In this document: in pieces, positions 19,474-52,959 of the stretch
How positions within the stretch are numbered: the first letter of the stretch is position 1
How the letters are laid out: the number at the start of each line of letters is the position of its first letter
DNA from: a virus
Lineage: Duplodnaviria > Caudoviricetes
DNA: 64,000 nucleotides
Direction: 5' to 3' (one strand)
Virus record (IMG/VR): IMGVR_UViG_3300021400_000045
Coordinates: 1 to 64,000 of that record
Notes under the pieces: generated by a model
Seen by the model: only the letters and a program-made list of their open reading frames with translations
What the model was told of the DNA's origin: nothing
The model's database searches: none
Position numbers and translations under genes: made by a program

Positions 19474-20292
19474 TCAATCCGTCACAAGCTCTATGTGTCC
19501 GTCCTCCGCTCTCTTGATCAGTCCCTCAAGCGTCAAGATATGCGCAAGGTGCTTTCTGACTGCATCAAGCTGATTAACGCGCTCGGCGTGTCCTCTGACA
19601 AGGTGCTTCATGTTCTCGGCTTGTTTCGCTGTGATGCGCTTCATACGCTCGGCTGTGCTGATTGCTTCAATTACTCGGCGTGTCCAGTCCTTCACGGCTT
19701 CGCGCTCGGTGATGGCTTTTTCCTGTCCGCTGGTGGTGGCGTGTTCGCTGATATGCTCTATCGGTGTGCCTTCCTTAGCGCTCCTACTGGTGTACCACTT
19801 CTCAAGCCTTCCGCATGCGCGGCATGCTTCAATGAAGGGGCTGAGACGGTCTGTGTAATAGTCCTGTTCATACTCGGCGGGGTTCGTGGCGGTATATTGC
19901 ATGGCTTCCGCTTCCGCTTCCTGCAGGGCCTTCGATGCTTCCTGTACCATGTCCGCATAGTGGGCGATATAAGCATTCTTGTCGGCGGTCGCTCCTCGTC
20001 TGATCGCCCCTTTGATTTTCGCGCCAACTACGCGCTTAGCAAGGTTGTATGCGCTGTCAGAAAATACGGCTTTCCGCTCGGCGCTCTCTTCCGCTCGGTG
20101 ATTAAGGGGGGCGGTTCGTGCGGTTCTCTCGGTCGCGGTCGTGGTTGGGGTGTCCGTGGGGCGCGTTCCGTTGTGGTGGTGGTTGGGGGCGATGATGGCA
20201 AGGGTTCGTGCTATGCGCTCGGCTACGGTGGCGGGGGTGCGGGTGTCGTTCATGCGTTCAAATGCTCGTTCGATGCGTTCGCGGTTCTTCAT
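19474..20292 (-). CDS. Divergent sigma-factor-like / helical regulatory protein
   Basis: RBS GGAAGGAAGG; ADMVQEA (region 2-like) and ITAKQAENMKHL...VRKHL (region 4-like); weak similarity. Confidence 0.4.
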   Translation of the reverse strand: MKNRERIERAFERMNDTRTPATVAERIARTLAIIAPNHHHNGTRPTDTPTTTATERTARTAPLNHRAEESAERKAVFSDSAYNLAKRVVGAKIKGAIRRGATADKNAYIAHYADMVQEASKALQEAEAEAMQYTATNPAEYEQDYYTDRLSPFIEACRACGRLEKWYTSRSAKEGTPIEHISEHATTSGQEKAITEREAVKDWTRRVIEAISTAERMKRITAKQAENMKHLVRGHAERVNQLDAVRKHLAHILTLEGLIKRAEDGHIELVTD

Positions 20293-20599
20293 GGTGTTCC
20301 TTCCTTCCTGCGCTCGTGGCGCTCTCGTGTGGTGGTCTGTACTTCATTGGAAGTACTATAGTAGTATTCGACACGATTTCCCGAATTCCTGCTATATTTT
20401 CAGATTGACATAATTTTGACACTGTCTGTTTACAATTTAGTCACGGTATATCGGGCTTCTCGGGTGCTGTGGGGGTGTAATCGTTCAATGATTGATGTGG
20501 TCAATTGTTGGTGATTATGTTCTCGGTCATCGTCTGAAATGATCGGGTTCGTACTGGTCTATTGTCTCTCGTTCCCTTTTCAACGTCTCTCGTTTGCGT

Positions 20600-20980
20600 T
20601 GGCGCGGTTCGATTGCTATGCATGGTACGTTCCGCGCTGGTGCGATGACCGGCAACGGTCACAGGGTAGCTGGAGATCCTGACATTGAACCCCAGCGCAT
20701 TACCTCTGACATGCAGGATGAAGGGGATACAGCAGCGCGACACTTGCAGGCGCTCAGCCAGGCCGATAGCCTTCGGTGATTCGGCATTACGGGCCTGTCC
20801 TTCGGCCAGGTCTGCTGGGGCACTGTGCGCGTGTACGTCCACCGAGCTGTGGTATAAGGCCATGACAGATATTCGCAGTCGCAAGACTGACTTTGCCCGC
20901 AGTGCAAGCCTGCGGGCCTTATGCCAGCGCCGACCGCACGAGGTCAGCGCGGTAAAATAATTAGCTGGCAAAGCCAGCAG
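20600..20980 (+). ncRNA. Candidate large structured RNA / leader of the early operon
   Basis: Two cUUCGg loops, GCAA-capped stems and long-range helices (see findings). Confidence 0.6.
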
Positions 20981-20993
20981 AAAGAGGTACACT

Positions 20994-21914
20994 ATGTACA
21001 ATGCCACTGATTACACCGAGAAGAAGTCTGTCGCTCAGTCTAAGCTCAACGCCTACGTTGAAAAGGTCAACGCCAACAAGCCCGCAGCTAACGAAGTCGC
21101 TGGCGCGAAAGAAGCGCTCGACAAGGCCATCGGCGATTACAACGCGCTTGTCATCTCCGACGCCTATGAGCGCCTGTTCCTGCTGACCGCCGACGCCACT
21201 GAGGTCGGCCCGCTGACCGATCCCGCCGAGCACCTGAAGCAGGTCGATCCCATTGGCCGCGCTCTCCGCGCCTATCGCTTCGCGGGCCTGATGAAGGTCA
21301 GCATCAAGCGCGAGAAAGACACGGGCCGCATCACGACGGCGTCGCTGGCCTTTGTGGCTGACGATGACGCCGACGACAAGAAGCAGGTCTACCACCTGCG
21401 CGACATTGAAGCAAAGTGGGACGAGCTTCAGAAGGCCGCAGAGGTGCCGCAGAAGGTTTCGCTCATGGCGTCGCCTGAGTGGTCTGCGCTCGTGTACCGT
21501 ATGCAGCGCCTGTTTACGGCTCGCTCGCTGTCGCTGGGCGGGTATGCCGTCCCGTCCGGACTGACTGCCGATTACATCGTGTATACGGCTGACGGGCAGG
21601 CTGTCGCGGTCGGTGACCTGACCGACGAGCAGCGGAAGGCGCTTGATGACAAGGTGAGCATCAAGAAGCTCAAGGAAGAGCTCCAGGCGCTTGTGGACGC
21701 CGTGTACTTTGACAGCACGGGCCGGAAGAACGGCTCCAACAAGTACCGTGTCGCGGAAAAGGACGTGAAATGGGTCACGGACAACGCGCAAAAGTTCGAC
21801 GAGCGCAGGCACAAGACGGTCATGATGACTGAAGCTCTGGCCTTCGAGCTGACCTTCTGCCTGACCGCGCACATCGTGACCGGCAAGGCATACGACGCGA
21901 TTCTGGGGGAGTAA
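20994..21914 (+). CDS. First gene of the early operon, unknown function
   Basis: 306 aa, RBS AGAGG, strongly biased codon usage. Confidence 0.8.
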   Translation: MYNATDYTEKKSVAQSKLNAYVEKVNANKPAANEVAGAKEALDKAIGDYNALVISDAYERLFLLTADATEVGPLTDPAEHLKQVDPIGRALRAYRFAGLMKVSIKREKDTGRITTASLAFVADDDADDKKQVYHLRDIEAKWDELQKAAEVPQKVSLMASPEWSALVYRMQRLFTARSLSLGGYAVPSGLTADYIVYTADGQAVAVGDLTDEQRKALDDKVSIKKLKEELQALVDAVYFDSTGRKNGSNKYRVAEKDVKWVTDNAQKFDERRHKTVMMTEALAFELTFCLTAHIVTGKAYDAILGE

Positions 21915-21983
21915 CACTCCCCTTTGCTCCGCATGACTCAAGCCTCCACGCGGCGCGGGGTGGGTAACGCTGATTGAGTCCAC

Positions 21984-22012
21984 TTGTCAACAGATCTGAA
22001 ACGTGCTACAAT
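21984..22012 (+). promoter_or_regulatory. SigA-type promoter
   Basis: TTGTCA-17 nt-TACAAT with extended TG. Confidence 0.6.
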
Positions 22013-22942: not shown

Positions 22943-22961
22943 CCGAATACTCATCACTGCG

Positions 22962-22984
22962 ACCGCCTTCGGGCGGTTTTTTTA
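22962..22984 (+). terminator. Intrinsic terminator
   Basis: ACCGCC-TTCG-GGCGGT plus T run. Confidence 0.85.
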
Positions 22985-37122: not shown

Positions 37123-37151
37123 TTGACAGGCCAGAACACGGGCAGTATAAT
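37123..37151 (+). promoter_or_regulatory. Perfect consensus SigA promoter
   Basis: TTGACA-17 nt-TATAAT. Confidence 0.85.
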
Positions 37152-37177
37152 GGTCGCACGAAAGGAGGGAATATCGC

Positions 37178-37384
37178 TTGTACATTTGCACGGTTGAAAG
37201 CAACTCGACCAGCCCTCGTGAGTACGAGGTGGACACCAAGTCTGCGATGCGATGTGCCAGGAAGTACGGACGCTGCGAAGGCGATGAGACCGTGACCGTC
37301 CGCACCAAGTCCGGCAGAATCGTATCGTGTGTGAAGTGGACGCCGCAGGACGGCGGACAGTACTACTACGCTCACACCATGTGA
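37178..37384 (+). CDS. Small protein in a stand-alone transcription unit
   Basis: TTG start, RBS AAGGAGG, own promoter and terminator. Confidence 0.7.
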   Translation: MYICTVESNSTSPREYEVDTKSAMRCARKYGRCEGDETVTVRTKSGRIVSCVKWTPQDGGQYYYAHTM

Positions 37385-37395
37385 GCAGAACAGGA

Positions 37396-37421
37396 ACCGC
37401 CATTGACGGCGGTGTTTTTTA
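37396..37421 (+). terminator. Intrinsic terminator
   Basis: ACCGCC-loop-GGCGGT-GTTTTTT. Confidence 0.75.
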
Positions 37422-37776: not shown

Positions 37777-38934
37777 ATGAAGTTGGGGAGTTTGTTCTCC
37801 GGTTCCGGCAGCTTTGAGCTCGCCGGACTTTTTAATGGGATCGAACCCGTGTTTAATTCGGAAGTAGATGCCTTCCCTGTAGCAGTCACGGATAAACGGC
37901 TCCCCAACGTCAAGCAGTTGGGCGACGTAACGAAGATCAGCGGAGCGAAAGTCGAGCCGGTGGACATCATCACCTTCGGTTCGCCGTGTCAGGATCTGTC
38001 CATCGCCGGTAATCAGGCTGGCATCCATGAAGGAACCAGAAGCTCCCTGTTCTTTGAAGCCATCAGGATCATTAAGGAGATGCGGAATGCAACATCAAAT
38101 CAGTTTCCAAGATTTGCTGTCTGGGAAAACGTCAAGGGATCTCTCAGCTCCCACAGCGGAGCAGACTTCAAAGCCGTCCTCGAAGCGTTCTGCGAAGCCG
38201 CAGGAGCCGACGTTCATGTACCTCTCCCTGAAGTCAACAAAGGGAAATGGGCCACAGCCGGAACCGTCGTGGGAGATGGTTTCTCGATTGCCTGGCGTGT
38301 CTACAACGCCGTCGGTTGGGGCGTTCCCCAGCGCCGTGAGAGAGTCTACCTTGTCGCAGATTTTGGAAGCGAACGTGCCGGAGAAATACTCTTTGAGTCC
38401 GAGAGCGGCGACGGGTATTCAACGCAGAGCTACGAGGCGTGGCAAGCCTTTGCCTTCGGTACTGAAGGAAGCGCTGGACGAAGTGATAGCCAGTGCATGA
38501 TCTGGGATGCCCGTGGCAATGGCGACGGACTCACTTCCCCCACCATCACCGGCGACCACAACAACCGGATCACCGACTATACCGCCGTCATTGTAGAACC
38601 GAGACCTGCGACCCACTACTTCTCCATGCAGCGCTTCGATGAGTTCAAGGAGAGCGATGCGGCATCCACCCTCAAACAGCGTGACTACAAAGATGTAACA
38701 GACATCGTGGTCGAGGAACGGGAACCAATACAGGAACGCAAGTACATCGTCCGGCGGCTGACGCCCACGGAAAGCCTGATTCTTCAGGGCTTGCCGAAAT
38801 GGTGGTGCGATGATGTGAAAGGTCGGTCGGACACAAAGGTCTATCGTCTCAGTGGGAACGGCATCGCTCTCCCCTGCGCGATCGATGTCCTCTATAAAAT
38901 CACCAAAGCATACGACATGAAAGGAGCGGCGTAA
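37777..38934 (+). CDS. C5 cytosine DNA methyltransferase (alpha polypeptide)
   Basis: LFSGSG (motif I), GSPCQD (IV), WENV (VI), PQRRER (VIII), RRLTPTE, GNGI (X). Confidence 0.9.
   Translation: MKLGSLFSGSGSFELAGLFNGIEPVFNSEVDAFPVAVTDKRLPNVKQLGDVTKISGAKVEPVDIITFGSPCQDLSIAGNQAGIHEGTRSSLFFEAIRIIKEMRNATSNQFPRFAVWENVKGSLSSHSGADFKAVLEAFCEAAGADVHVPLPEVNKGKWATAGTVVGDGFSIAWRVYNAVGWGVPQRRERVYLVADFGSERAGEILFESESGDGYSTQSYEAWQAFAFGTEGSAGRSDSQCMIWDARGNGDGLTSPTITGDHNNRITDYTAVIVEPRPATHYFSMQRFDEFKESDAASTLKQRDYKDVTDIVVEEREPIQERKYIVRRLTPTESLILQGLPKWWCDDVKGRSDTKVYRLSGNGIALPCAIDVLYKITKAYDMKGAA
38087..38500 (+). CDS. Nested alternative-frame methyltransferase beta polypeptide (M.EcoHK31I-type)
   Basis: Own RBS AAGGAG; STLSQILEANVPEKYSLSPRAATGIQRRATRRGKPLP. 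Confidence 0.7.
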   Translation: MQHQISFQDLLSGKTSRDLSAPTAEQTSKPSSKRSAKPQEPTFMYLSLKSTKGNGPQPEPSWEMVSRLPGVSTTPSVGAFPSAVRESTLSQILEANVPEKYSLSPRAATGIQRRATRRGKPLPSVLKEALDEVIASA

Positions 38935-40010
38935 TGAGAAAACTTGCAAGCGTTCAGGTCATCTGGAATGTGGAACCCATCGAGGGTGCGGACAGGATCG
39001 AGCTTGTCCATGTCCTCGGCTGGCAGTGCGTGGCCAACAAGGGCCAGTTCAAGAAGGGCGATGTCGGAGTGTATTTCGAGATCGATTCCTTCCTCCCCAT
39101 CCGTGAGGAGTTTGAGTTCCTGCGGGCTTCCTCATACAAGAAGACGGACATCATGGGCGAGGGCTTCAGACTGCGGACTCAGAAATTCCGTGGCCAGCTC
39201 TCTCAGGGACTGGTGCTTCCGCTGTCTGTCTTCCCTGAGATCCCGGCGGACACGCCTGTCGGAACCAGCGTAGCGGAACAGCTCGGTGTCATAAAGTGGG
39301 AGATTGAGGAACGCGCCACCACTGGAGGCACTGTTGCCGGAGTACTCCCCGCCTGTGTGCCTCATACAGACGAGACGCGAGTGCAGAACGAGCCGGATCT
39401 CCTTCAGGAGTTTGCCGGACTGGAATACTACATCACAACCAAGATGGACGGCTCGTCTCATTCGATTGCCATTGACGAGGACGGAATGCACGTCACCGGA
39501 CACAACTTCGAGTACAAGGACGATGGTTCAAGTGCCTTCTACGAGTTCGTGAAGAAGACCGGTATTCTGGAACGGGTCAAAACACTTCACGATATTGTTC
39601 GCGACAGGCACTGGTTCTGTGATGACGGAGAGGAATTGGAATCTCTGGTCGTTCAGGGTGAGTTCTGTGCTCCCGGCATCCAGAGGAACCGCCTGAAGCT
39701 GACGAAGCCGGAATGGTACGTGTTCACCATTATCGTGAACGGCAACCGCCTTGGAATGAAGGATATGGTCATGCTGTGTGACGCCGCTTCCCTGACATAC
39801 GTGCCGATCGATGAAGTGGACACTGATCTTCCATCCAAGTATCCCACGGTGGAAGCCATACTGGAACGAGCGGACGGGCAGTATCCCAACGGCGGGCCGA
39901 ATGAGGGGCTGGTCATCAGGCCGACTGTACCGGTCATATCCAAGACAATCGGAACCTGGCTTTCCATGAAGGCCATCAACAACAAATACCTGCTGAAGAA
40001 TAAGGAGTGA
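38934..40010 (+). CDS. RNA ligase, DRB0094/Rnl5 family
   Basis: RKLASVQ...IEGADRIE N-terminus; KMDGS (motif I), QGEF, EGLV, SMKAIN. Confidence 0.85.
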   Translation: MRKLASVQVIWNVEPIEGADRIELVHVLGWQCVANKGQFKKGDVGVYFEIDSFLPIREEFEFLRASSYKKTDIMGEGFRLRTQKFRGQLSQGLVLPLSVFPEIPADTPVGTSVAEQLGVIKWEIEERATTGGTVAGVLPACVPHTDETRVQNEPDLLQEFAGLEYYITTKMDGSSHSIAIDEDGMHVTGHNFEYKDDGSSAFYEFVKKTGILERVKTLHDIVRDRHWFCDDGEELESLVVQGEFCAPGIQRNRLKLTKPEWYVFTIIVNGNRLGMKDMVMLCDAASLTYVPIDEVDTDLPSKYPTVEAILERADGQYPNGGPNEGLVIRPTVPVISKTIGTWLSMKAINNKYLLKNKE

Positions 40011-51461: not shown

Positions 51462-52634
51462 ATGCCAAACTACACCATGTATCACTGTCACAGCGATTAC
51501 AGTCTGCTGGACAGCTGCACCAAGTTCGATGATTACATCGCGCTTGCCAAGCGGGACGGCATGACGGCTATCGGGTCTACGGAGCACGGTCTCCCCAGGG
51601 GCAACATTCATAAGATGATCGCCTGTCAGGAGGCTGGCCTCAAGTTTCTCTACGGCGTCGAGGTCTATCTGACCAGATCGCTGTCGGGGGACAAGGTCAG
51701 GGATAACTACCACACCGTGCTGATCGCGAAGAACCATGATGGCATGAAGGAGATCAACCTGGCCGTCAAGCTGGCGTCCAGAGACGACCACTTCTATTAC
51801 CAGCCGCGCATGACCTTCGATGAGCTGACCCGGCTGTCAAAAAACGTCATCGTGATCTCGGCCTGTATCGCGTCGCCCATGAGCAAGCTACCCGTCAGCG
51901 ATCCTGACTATCAGAAACTGCTCAACCGTTACGATTATCTGGAGATCCAGCACCACGATAACCCCGATCAGGCGGCGTACAACCAGCACCTGTACCAGCT
52001 GTCGCTGGAGACGGGCAAACCACTCATCGCTGGGACAGACACCCACTCTTCCACACCGTACAAGGCAGAGTGCCGCGACCTGCTGATGCTTGCCAAGGGC
52101 AAGTCCTTCCCCGATGAGGAGACATTCGACCTGACCTACAAGACCTACGATGAGCTGGTGGCAGCCTACGAGAAGCAGGCCGCGCTCCCCCGTGATGTCT
52201 ACCTTCAGGCGCTGGAGAACACCAATGTCATGGCGGCAAGCGTAGAAGAGTTTACAGTGGACAGGAGCAATAAGTATCCCATCTCCTATGGCTCCGCCGA
52301 AGAGGATGTGCGGAGGTACAGAGAACTGACCTGGCAGATGTTTGAGGATAAGCTGAAGAACGGTGTGATACCGAGGAGCCAGGAAGATGCGTTCAGGAAG
52401 GCGATAGAAGAGGAGCTCGCTACGTTTGAAAAGCTTGGCATGTGCGGCTTCATGCTGTCAGAGAGCGAGCTCATTCAGTGGTGCCATGCCAACGGCATTC
52501 CGACCGGCCCTGCCCGTGGTTCTGTCGGCGGTTCGCGGGTAGCCTATGTCACGGACATTATCGATATGAACCCAGAAGACTACGGCACGATTTTCAGCAG
52601 GTTCTGTAACGAAAATCGTGTAGAAATCGGTGAT
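51462..52634 (+). CDS. dnaE: DNA polymerase III alpha (DnaE), exon 1
   Basis: PHP domain HCHSDYSLLD, TEHG, DTH; GPARGSVGGS; FSRF. Confidence 0.92.
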
Positions 52635-52959
52635 TAACCTTGGTCACCCTTTGCAGTAATGCATCGAAAATAAGCTGGTGAACCAACACATGTTGGGTGT
52701 GCGGCAATTGCCGTGCTAACGGTGAAAGCTAAACCGAGAGGCATGCTAATACCGTGGTAAGCCTTTGGGAAAGGAGGTAACCATAAGGTTAGCTGTGGTT
52801 ATCGGCTTATTAAGCTTCCGAAGGAAACTGTAACGACTATCCAGACAGGAGTAGCGTAACGGTGAAATTCCGTTATGTGAAGCGCCAGCCTCCGCAACTA
52901 TGCGGATGAAGATATAGTCTACTCCCCTAATAAATATCGGGAAACCGAGGGTATAAAGG
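52635..52959 (+). ncRNA. Group I intron, ORF-less, 325 nt
   Basis: P1 GGUGAU/GUCACC with U-G; P7 GACUA/UAGUC; terminal G; splicing restores catalytic GD/IDTD. Confidence 0.9.

Follow-up and report, generated by a model that had tools for sequence, protein, structure and literature searches.

A conserved structured RNA leader, absent from Rfam, precedes the first rightward gene of a rumen-type phage genome

Genomic context

The source phage is of rumen type, with a 116-kb Caudoviricetes genome, and the stretch analyzed here (the window) is the first 64 kb (64,000 nucleotides) of a 116,012-bp virus record that has direct terminal repeats and is rated complete. At about 21 kb the AT skew of the window is reversed in sign. 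On the - strand, the leftward arm (1-20300) carries genes for portal, terminase, protease, exonuclease, PhoH and a two-barrel-type RNA polymerase. The rightward arm begins with about 16 kb of small genes without assigned function, followed by genes for DNA methyltransferase, RNA ligase, endolysin, ParB, Erf, primase-helicase and DNA polymerase. No tRNA or tmRNA was detected. Divergent genes flank the 700-nt intergenic region in which the leader lies, namely a 272-aa gene (19474-20292, - strand) and a 306-aa gene on the + strand. Its DNA was compared at three distinct sequences: the window, L007 (a 110-kb metagenome contig) and L002 (a 107-kb viral contig; L009 is identical to it). The following features frame the leader:

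20455-20485, + strand: conserved upstream block, TTCTCGGGTGC to GGGGTGTAATCGT, kept at the three loci although its flanks are not; unique in the window
20994-21914, + strand: gene for the 306-aa protein, found behind the leader wherever the leader region is seen

The block at 20455-20485 may be a promoter or regulatory site. It is followed, in all three phages, by repeated TGATTGA/TCAATCA-like words (20480-20550), and the interval 20455-20560 as a whole may combine a promoter for the leader transcript with operator sites. No sigma-70-like hexamer pair was found on either strand in 20200-21100, nor any sigma-70 site upstream of the leader that is conserved in position across the three loci, and the transcription start was not located.

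The codon-position identities of the 306-aa gene (0.88/0.91/0.66) fit a coding gene. Its protein has 13 close clusters (52-100% identity) among 5.8 billion proteins and 21 clusters by profile among 1.8 billion representatives (50% identity). About a dozen 90%-identity protein clusters are expected to be close enough to carry the leader, so that the leader family would be a narrow one within a wider protein family of 21 clusters at 50% identity. The protein has no Pfam, PHROG or NCBIfam match, and nothing informative came from a PDB sequence search, Foldseek, VIA-align or the protein atlas. The AlphaFold model (pLDDT 76) yielded no informative fold match, and neither the model nor the fold searches disclosed a recognisable RNA-binding fold.

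Architecture of the leader

From sequence comparison, positions 20601-20978 are assigned to a 5' untranslated leader, on the + strand, of the 306-aa gene; its predicted fold has at least 13 helices, arranged in two domains. P1 and P4 close the 5' domain, which holds two cUUCGg hairpins, and a three-way junction is the basis of the 3' domain. The elements of the leader are, in order:

20601-07 / 20632-38, + strand: P1, enclosing a variable hairpin and the invariant unpaired segment AUGGUACG (20622-29)
20646-20661, + strand: hairpin P2, with a GCAA loop in the window; different hairpins occupy this place in the relatives
20662-20681, + strand: hairpin P3, with a conserved 8-nt loop AGCUGGNG that includes the invariant AGCUGG; all cells pair
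20690-20820, + strand: domain closed by P4 (20690-96 / 20814-20), with P5, a central region, P8 plus P8a, and P9
20850-20926, + strand: three-way junction, P11 (20850-58 / 20918-26) around P11a and P11b
20876-89, + strand: P11a, with a conserved GCAA tetraloop and one compensatory pair
20895-20917, + strand: P11b, with the 9-nt loop GUGCAAGCC of T-loop pattern and two compensatory pairs
20927-20950, + strand: hairpin P12, with the loop GCACGA
20954-20963, + strand: single-stranded A/U-rich linker, A/U-rich at all three loci with differing sequence
20964-20978, + strand: hairpin P13, 5 nt 5' of the Shine-Dalgarno sequence, with one compensatory pair (CG to UA)
20983-20996, + strand: Shine-Dalgarno GAGG and ATG (20994), with AGAAAGAGGTA invariant at all loci

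The helices listed by the first-pass annotation, which had been made from the letters of the window, all lie where it placed them. They comprise GGCGCGG (20601) with CCGCGCT (20632), the hairpin TGACCG-GCAA-CGGTCA (20646-20661), the long-range helix of CCCCAGC (20690) with GCTGGGG (20814), both CUUCGG loops (20771 and 20800), TGGTATAAGGC (20850) with GCCTTATGCCA (20916), the hairpin CAGTC-GCAA-GACTG (20876-20889), GCCCGCAG with CTGCGGGC (20895-20917), and the hairpin GCTGGC-AAA-GCCAGC (20964-20978). The same annotation saw no credible ORF in the element. A 168-aa frame (- strand) and a 91-aa frame (+ strand) are in fact present, but neither is conserved: their length and sequence are not kept in the relatives, which have indels of 22, 12 and 6 bases. 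A protein-coding reading of the leader was rejected on the non-conserved frame and on the changes in L002, which are compensatory for RNA and non-conservative for protein.

Within the P4-closed domain, the two cUUCGg hairpins are P8a and P9, and the conserved central region contains UGCAGGAUGAAG and AGCGCGAC; L002 has an extra hairpin inserted in this domain. A variable region separates the P4 domain from P11. The A/U-rich linker has a predicted unpaired probability of 0.8-0.99 in the window and L007 and of 0.46-0.98 in L002, and the layout of P13, Shine-Dalgarno sequence and ATG is constant at all loci. No + strand intrinsic terminator was found within the leader or between it and the 306-aa gene. 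On the - strand, P13 followed by the T run of TAATTATTTT (20954-20978) scores as an intrinsic terminator, a reading that is probably a by-product of the A/U-rich linker, because no - strand promoter was found to its right.

Three minor features may be mentioned. In the window, GTCTCTCGTT is tandemly duplicated immediately 5' of P1. A candidate pseudoknot between CAUUGAA (20683-20689) and UUCGGUG (20772-20778) competes with the first cUUCGg hairpin; one of its pairs changes from AU to GC in L002, which is not decisive. A long-range GGUAC pairing of AUGGUACG with the spacer was rejected, as it has only 4-6 bp and is weakest in the window.

Comparative evidence for a conserved RNA

By folding energy the + strand of the element has a z-score of -2.16 (1 of 100 shuffles as stable) and the - strand one of -0.5. 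By itself the folding energy is only mildly unusual, and the case for a conserved RNA draws its strength from comparison. When viral, metagenome and genome collections were scanned with protein patterns, only L002/L009, L007 and L008 matched, the last being a relative of the 306-aa gene with just 65 nt upstream. Both full relatives (L007 and L002) have the same element 5' of the same 306-aa gene. Among GenBank phages there was no DNA match and no protein match, and a loose DNA pattern search for further leaders gave chance matches only. A 17-base match to HNH-endonuclease genes of other phages (L003, L004 and L006) was set aside as chance, as was L010, a chance match inside a gene.

Collecting homologues and examining covariation, as had been suggested for this element, revealed that the helices are kept through compensatory changes in L007 and L002. 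RNAalifold on the three sequences predicted 98 pairs, 17 of them changed on both sides. In the unedited MAFFT alignment (A5) the ten helices contain 13 doubly changed pairs, compared with 4.8 +/- 1.8 in shuffles (none of 500 reached this number) and 0-2 in a partner-sliding control on the same alignment. Registration by hand covers 12 helices with 74 pair positions, or 222 cells in the three sequences, of which 212 pair. With n=3 sequences, and helices partly selected for conservation, 15 doubly variable pairs remain paired throughout, compared with 2.4 +/- 1.4 (maximum 9 in 20,000) when substitutions are reshuffled among columns sharing the window base.

The individual changes are distributed over both domains. 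In P1, pair 2 changes from GC to CG, pair 6 from GC to UG and pair 5 from CG to UG across the three sequences, and in P3 two pairs are altered on both sides. P5, P8 and P9 show compensatory changes, and P4 is conserved with a single change from CG to UG. P11 (TGGTATAAGGC / GCCTTATGCCA) is kept in L007 with a GC to AU change and in L002 with two AU to GU changes and one UG to CG, in a register that MAFFT missed. One pair of P12 is AU, CG and GC in the three sequences and another changes from GC to UG. The hand-registered helices contain 22 G-U or U-G cells versus 3 A-C or C-A cells, and the folded molecule is therefore + strand RNA.

Window and L007 are 0.81 identical in the leader, compared with 0.59 at the four-fold degenerate sites of the adjacent gene, which argues for selection on the leader. 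The stems vary, and a set of unpaired segments is nearly or fully invariant, namely AUGGUACG, AGCUGG, ACAUUGA, UGCAGGAUGAAG, AGCGCGAC, GAUAGCCUUCGGUGAUUC and GUGCAAGCC. Such invariant loops joined to varying stems would fit a tertiary fold or a binding surface. The central proposal of the first-pass annotation, a large structured RNA on the + strand directly 5' of the ribosome-binding site of the first rightward-arm gene, is upheld: the leader is a real, conserved, structured + strand RNA whose family is absent from Rfam.

In predicted folding ensembles, the AUG and the 3' half of the Shine-Dalgarno sequence are also base-paired to leader positions, at probabilities of about 0.97-0.99 in the window and about 0.9 in L002. 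In L007 the predicted masking of the Shine-Dalgarno sequence is weak, and the pairing partners are non-homologous between phages. Relative to shuffled controls there is no excess of masking in two of the three phages (p = 0.39 and 0.22). The leader is thus predicted to mask the Shine-Dalgarno sequence, yet this masking was rejected as a conserved feature on its lack of significance and its non-homologous partners; what the models offer is a suggestive hint of start-site masking in two phages.

A predicted HDV-like ribozyme behind the 306-aa gene

Three further features lie at the other end of the 306-aa gene:

21906-21922, + strand: 7-bp hairpin that includes the stop codon, present at all three loci; changes in L002 keep the pairing
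21926-21980, + strand: predicted minimal HDV-like (theta-type) ribozyme, with its cleavage site predicted at 21925/21926
21984-22012, + strand: sigma-70-like promoter, TTGTCA-17-TACAAT with TG, hexamers conserved in L007 and L002

The predicted ribozyme begins 11 nt past the stop codon, at the same position in all three phages, and is present in a single copy in the genome. The Rfam model RF00094 scores 30.5, 37.4 and 29.7 bits at the three loci (the match in the window spans 21924-21983), against a gathering score of 50; it does not score the P2 pseudoknot, which has 7 bp (GACUCAA with UUGAGUC) and an AU to GU change in L002. All three loci share a P1 with a G1-U wobble, a P3 of GCC/GGC, the L3 sequence UCCACGC, GG for P1.1, a catalytic C in J4/2 and a minimal P4. 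On this pattern, 21926-21980 has the structure expected of an HDV-like (theta) ribozyme. The region is 90% identical among the phages, compared with 59% at four-fold sites.

Minimal HDV-like theta ribozymes are known from gut phages and include a non-tRNA class without an assigned role (PMC10879173). The predicted ribozyme shares with them the nested double pseudoknot, the minimal P4 and a gut-type Caudoviricetes genome. It stands behind a protein-coding gene and a simple hairpin, unlike tRNA-linked theta ribozymes, and is best placed in the non-tRNA class (PMC10879173). The DRB0094 family of RNA ligases is strongly enriched in phages with theta ribozymes (PMC10879173), and the present phage genome likewise has a ligase of this family (38934-40010; TIGR02306, E = 9e-39, slightly under the curated cut-off). 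The same ribozyme core was seen in five other large IMG/VR phages, 3' of a tRNA in L142 and L143 and 3' of a plain hairpin in L140, L141 and L144; L140 has a second BLAST match, 80% identical, about 1.2 kb away.

This companion ribozyme is the most useful new fact on the locus and alters its interpretation. The most likely end of the transcript is at the predicted HDV-like ribozyme behind the terminal hairpin, 11 nt past the stop codon. Given the ribozyme, the hairpin and the promoter downstream, the leader and the 306-aa gene therefore look like a separate ribozyme-bounded mRNA. If true, non-tRNA theta ribozymes would gain a role in making hairpin-capped 3' ends and in insulating transcription units. 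Comparable roles are played by RNase III sites in T7 early mRNAs and by the engineered ribozyme insulators of synthetic biology.

Antitermination and DNA-level readings

The element had been suggested to be an antitermination leader that lets transcription pass the terminators at 22962, 29226 and 37396. It would then be a processive RNA of the put or conAn kind, modifying RNA polymerase so as to pass the terminators at 22961, 29226 and 37396, and its position at the head of a rightward arm of small uncharacterised genes would suit this, as would the terminator-like sites at 22961, 23281, 29226 and 37396. Large antiterminator RNAs are known in conjugative plasmids (PMC8191782), and the leader resembles HK022 put and pLS20 conAn2 in being a cis RNA near the start of an operon with internal terminators.

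The conserved HDV-like ribozyme predicted 11 nt past the first gene, between that gene and the first terminator, weighs against this suggestion, since self-cleavage there would sever the leader from the nascent RNA. The put RNA is reported, in work by Sen, King and Weisberg from 2001, to need a tether to the polymerase via the nascent RNA, and to our knowledge it is the one characterised RNA antiterminator. Cleavage by the ribozyme before the 22961 terminator would therefore break a put-like tether and defeat antitermination. Read-through of the operon as a whole is further undercut by sigma-70-like promoters at 21984, 28138 and 37123, which would restart transcription and serve the downstream genes. 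Unlike put and conAn2, the leader has a predicted self-cleaving ribozyme and new promoters between it and the terminators. The leader is about five times larger than put. The analogy with conAn also fails on gene order, on which it was judged, as the conAn2 RNA lies 3' of the conAn1 gene at the start of the pLS20 conjugation operon (PMC8191782) and the present RNA lies 5' of its protein gene, in a phage. In Rfam there was no match to the EAR family; with put and conAn2 the leader was compared in size and layout. The antitermination reading is weakened and is not supported by these data, and we consider it improbable.

An effect at the level of DNA, as a Frpo-like single-stranded promoter, a replication or primosome site or an operator array, is scarcely probable at all. 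Frpo-type promoters consist of a hairpin that recreates the -35 and -10 hexamers in single-stranded plasmid DNA. The element does occupy the main divergent intergenic region, with the TGATTGA/TCAATCA-like repeats slightly upstream (20480-20550). The Frpo-like promoter raised by the first-pass annotation nevertheless lost its footing: -35/-10-like hexamers were not found, the genome is that of a phage with terminal repeats and not a conjugative plasmid, and the excess of G-U over A-C cells (22 vs. 3) fits + strand RNA. The UUCG and GNRA loops and the T-loop are likewise RNA motifs.

Rfam families and the resemblance to twister-sister

In the Rfam comparison the whole window gave no match at gathering thresholds, and 20300-21100 gave none at E <= 10. 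No Rfam 15 family, including ROOL, GOLLD, OLE, HEARO, T-box, EAR and the riboswitches, matched the leader in the window. The group I intron model RF00028 has no match at E <= 10 in the element, and there is no exon context for such an intron at the leader; the same search gives a 27-bit match at 52625-52941. With no Rfam match, the leader RNA family appears new.

Among the leaders of the relatives, the sole Rfam match is to twister-sister (RF02681), below threshold, in L002. Positions 2883-2949 of this contig score 28.5 bits over the full model (gathering threshold 34), with E = 0.0009 in 1.3 kb and 0.0099 in 13.8 kb. The window and L007 have no match to RF02681 at E <= 10. In twister-sister ribozymes the SL4 loop on P4 has the consensus GUGCAAGYC, and the internal loop L1 (GCAAG / GCUCAU), between P1 and P2, carries the C-A cleavage site; in the crystal structure SL4 docks into this catalytic loop (PMC5660989). 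The match in L002 rests on the P11b loop and the CCGCAAGGCUGA stretch, and arises because the 9-base P11b loop is identical to the SL4 loop.

A divergent ribozyme related to twister-sister in the 3' domain, trimming the leader so that the 306-aa mRNA would be ribozyme-processed at both ends, is on the sequences at hand very improbable. The full-model match in L002 speaks for it, as do the P11b loop GUGCAAGCC, which equals the SL4 consensus and is invariant in the three phages, the multi-helix junction adjoining this SL4-like loop, and the second predicted ribozyme at the 3' end of the same gene. The CCGCAAGGCUGA similarity and the gut or rumen phage context are further points of likeness. However, the score stays below the gathering threshold, only one of three homologues scores, and the CAU of the 3' strand of L1, which bears the C-A site (PMC5660989), is deleted in the RF02681 alignment. 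The GCAA is the loop of the covarying P11a and the would-be 3' strands form the covarying P12, so that covariation contradicts the P1 and P2 pairings of the model, and L007 breaks both. With the 3' strand of L1 missing, P1 and P2 contradicted and the window and L007 silent, the element is therefore not filed as twister-sister, and the resemblance is more simply read as a shared T-loop module.

Proposed role of the leader

We tentatively regard the leader as a cis-acting, factor-binding 5' leader that controls the stability or translation of the first gene, a reading that we prefer to the others and hold with low confidence. The leader and the 306-aa gene would form one discrete mRNA with protected ends, on which the leader would act in cis. 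Its invariant loops and junctions would give a compact tertiary fold that serves to bind a factor, for which the 306-aa protein, a host protein, the ribosome and a small ligand are the candidates, and binding would set stability and/or translation of the first gene. The leader would thus not be a polymerase-modifying antiterminator for the whole operon. Against simple 5' protection, an ornate structure of about 350 nt is more than this would need.

A long structured leader of 456 nt is known from the pLS20 conjugation operon (PMC13401043). Like it, the phage leader extends over several hundred nucleotides before a long one-directional gene block of a mobile element and has conserved stem-loops. 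Unlike it, the phage leader has neither a terminator/antiterminator alternative nor a + strand intrinsic terminator, has many helices and invariant loops instead of one long zipper stem, and belongs to a phage and not to a plasmid.

It is possible, though unlikely, that the RNA stands alone, as an 'ornate' phage RNA or as the RNA partner of the 306-aa protein in a complex. A cut within the A/U-rich linker would free it, giving it P12 as its 3' end and leaving P13 at the 5' end of the mRNA as a protective hairpin. In size, helix count and invariant loops the element is closer to large structured RNAs than to simple leaders, and the linker is a single-stranded A/U-rich stretch between two covarying hairpins. 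Nevertheless, the 3' end has no terminator or known processing site, and Rfam families of large RNAs gave no match. The constant co-occurrence with the 306-aa gene, which would suit a partner RNA, is equally expected of a cis leader. The element resembles ROOL, GOLLD and OLE (PMC12286853) in being large and helix-rich with conserved loops, in a rumen-type phage. It differs from them in its smaller size (~350-380 nt), the lack of an Rfam match and its fusion to an mRNA in place of a separate gene. Several of its invariant unpaired segments carry the palindromic tetranucleotides AGCU, GUAC and UGCA.

The cis leader thus ranks first, followed in descending order by the stand-alone RNA, antitermination, the divergent ribozyme and the DNA-level element, with part of the probability left to none of them. 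In a bolder reading, which we think quite unlikely, the leader would be a large structured phage RNA of a new class and would itself be active, through catalysis, binding to polymerase or ribosome, or formation of multimers through the palindromic invariant loops, and would make up, with the ribozyme, a self-processed early mRNA with protected ends. Such an mRNA might even be a substrate of the DRB0094-type RNA ligase.

If the leader is confirmed, a new and fairly large structured RNA family would be added to the few known from phages. It would offer a convenient genetic handle, consisting of one leader, one gene and one ribozyme.

Other features of the window

In the interval 37123-37413, about 250 nt are flanked by a promoter that matches the sigma-70 consensus perfectly (TTGACA-17-TATAAT) and by a terminator-like hairpin at 37396. 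A 68-aa frame with a TTG start lies inside, and the interval could be a gene for a small RNA or a small protein. The group I intron match at 52625-52941, sub-threshold in Rfam (27.3 bits, E = 0.006), adjoins the DNA polymerase gene.
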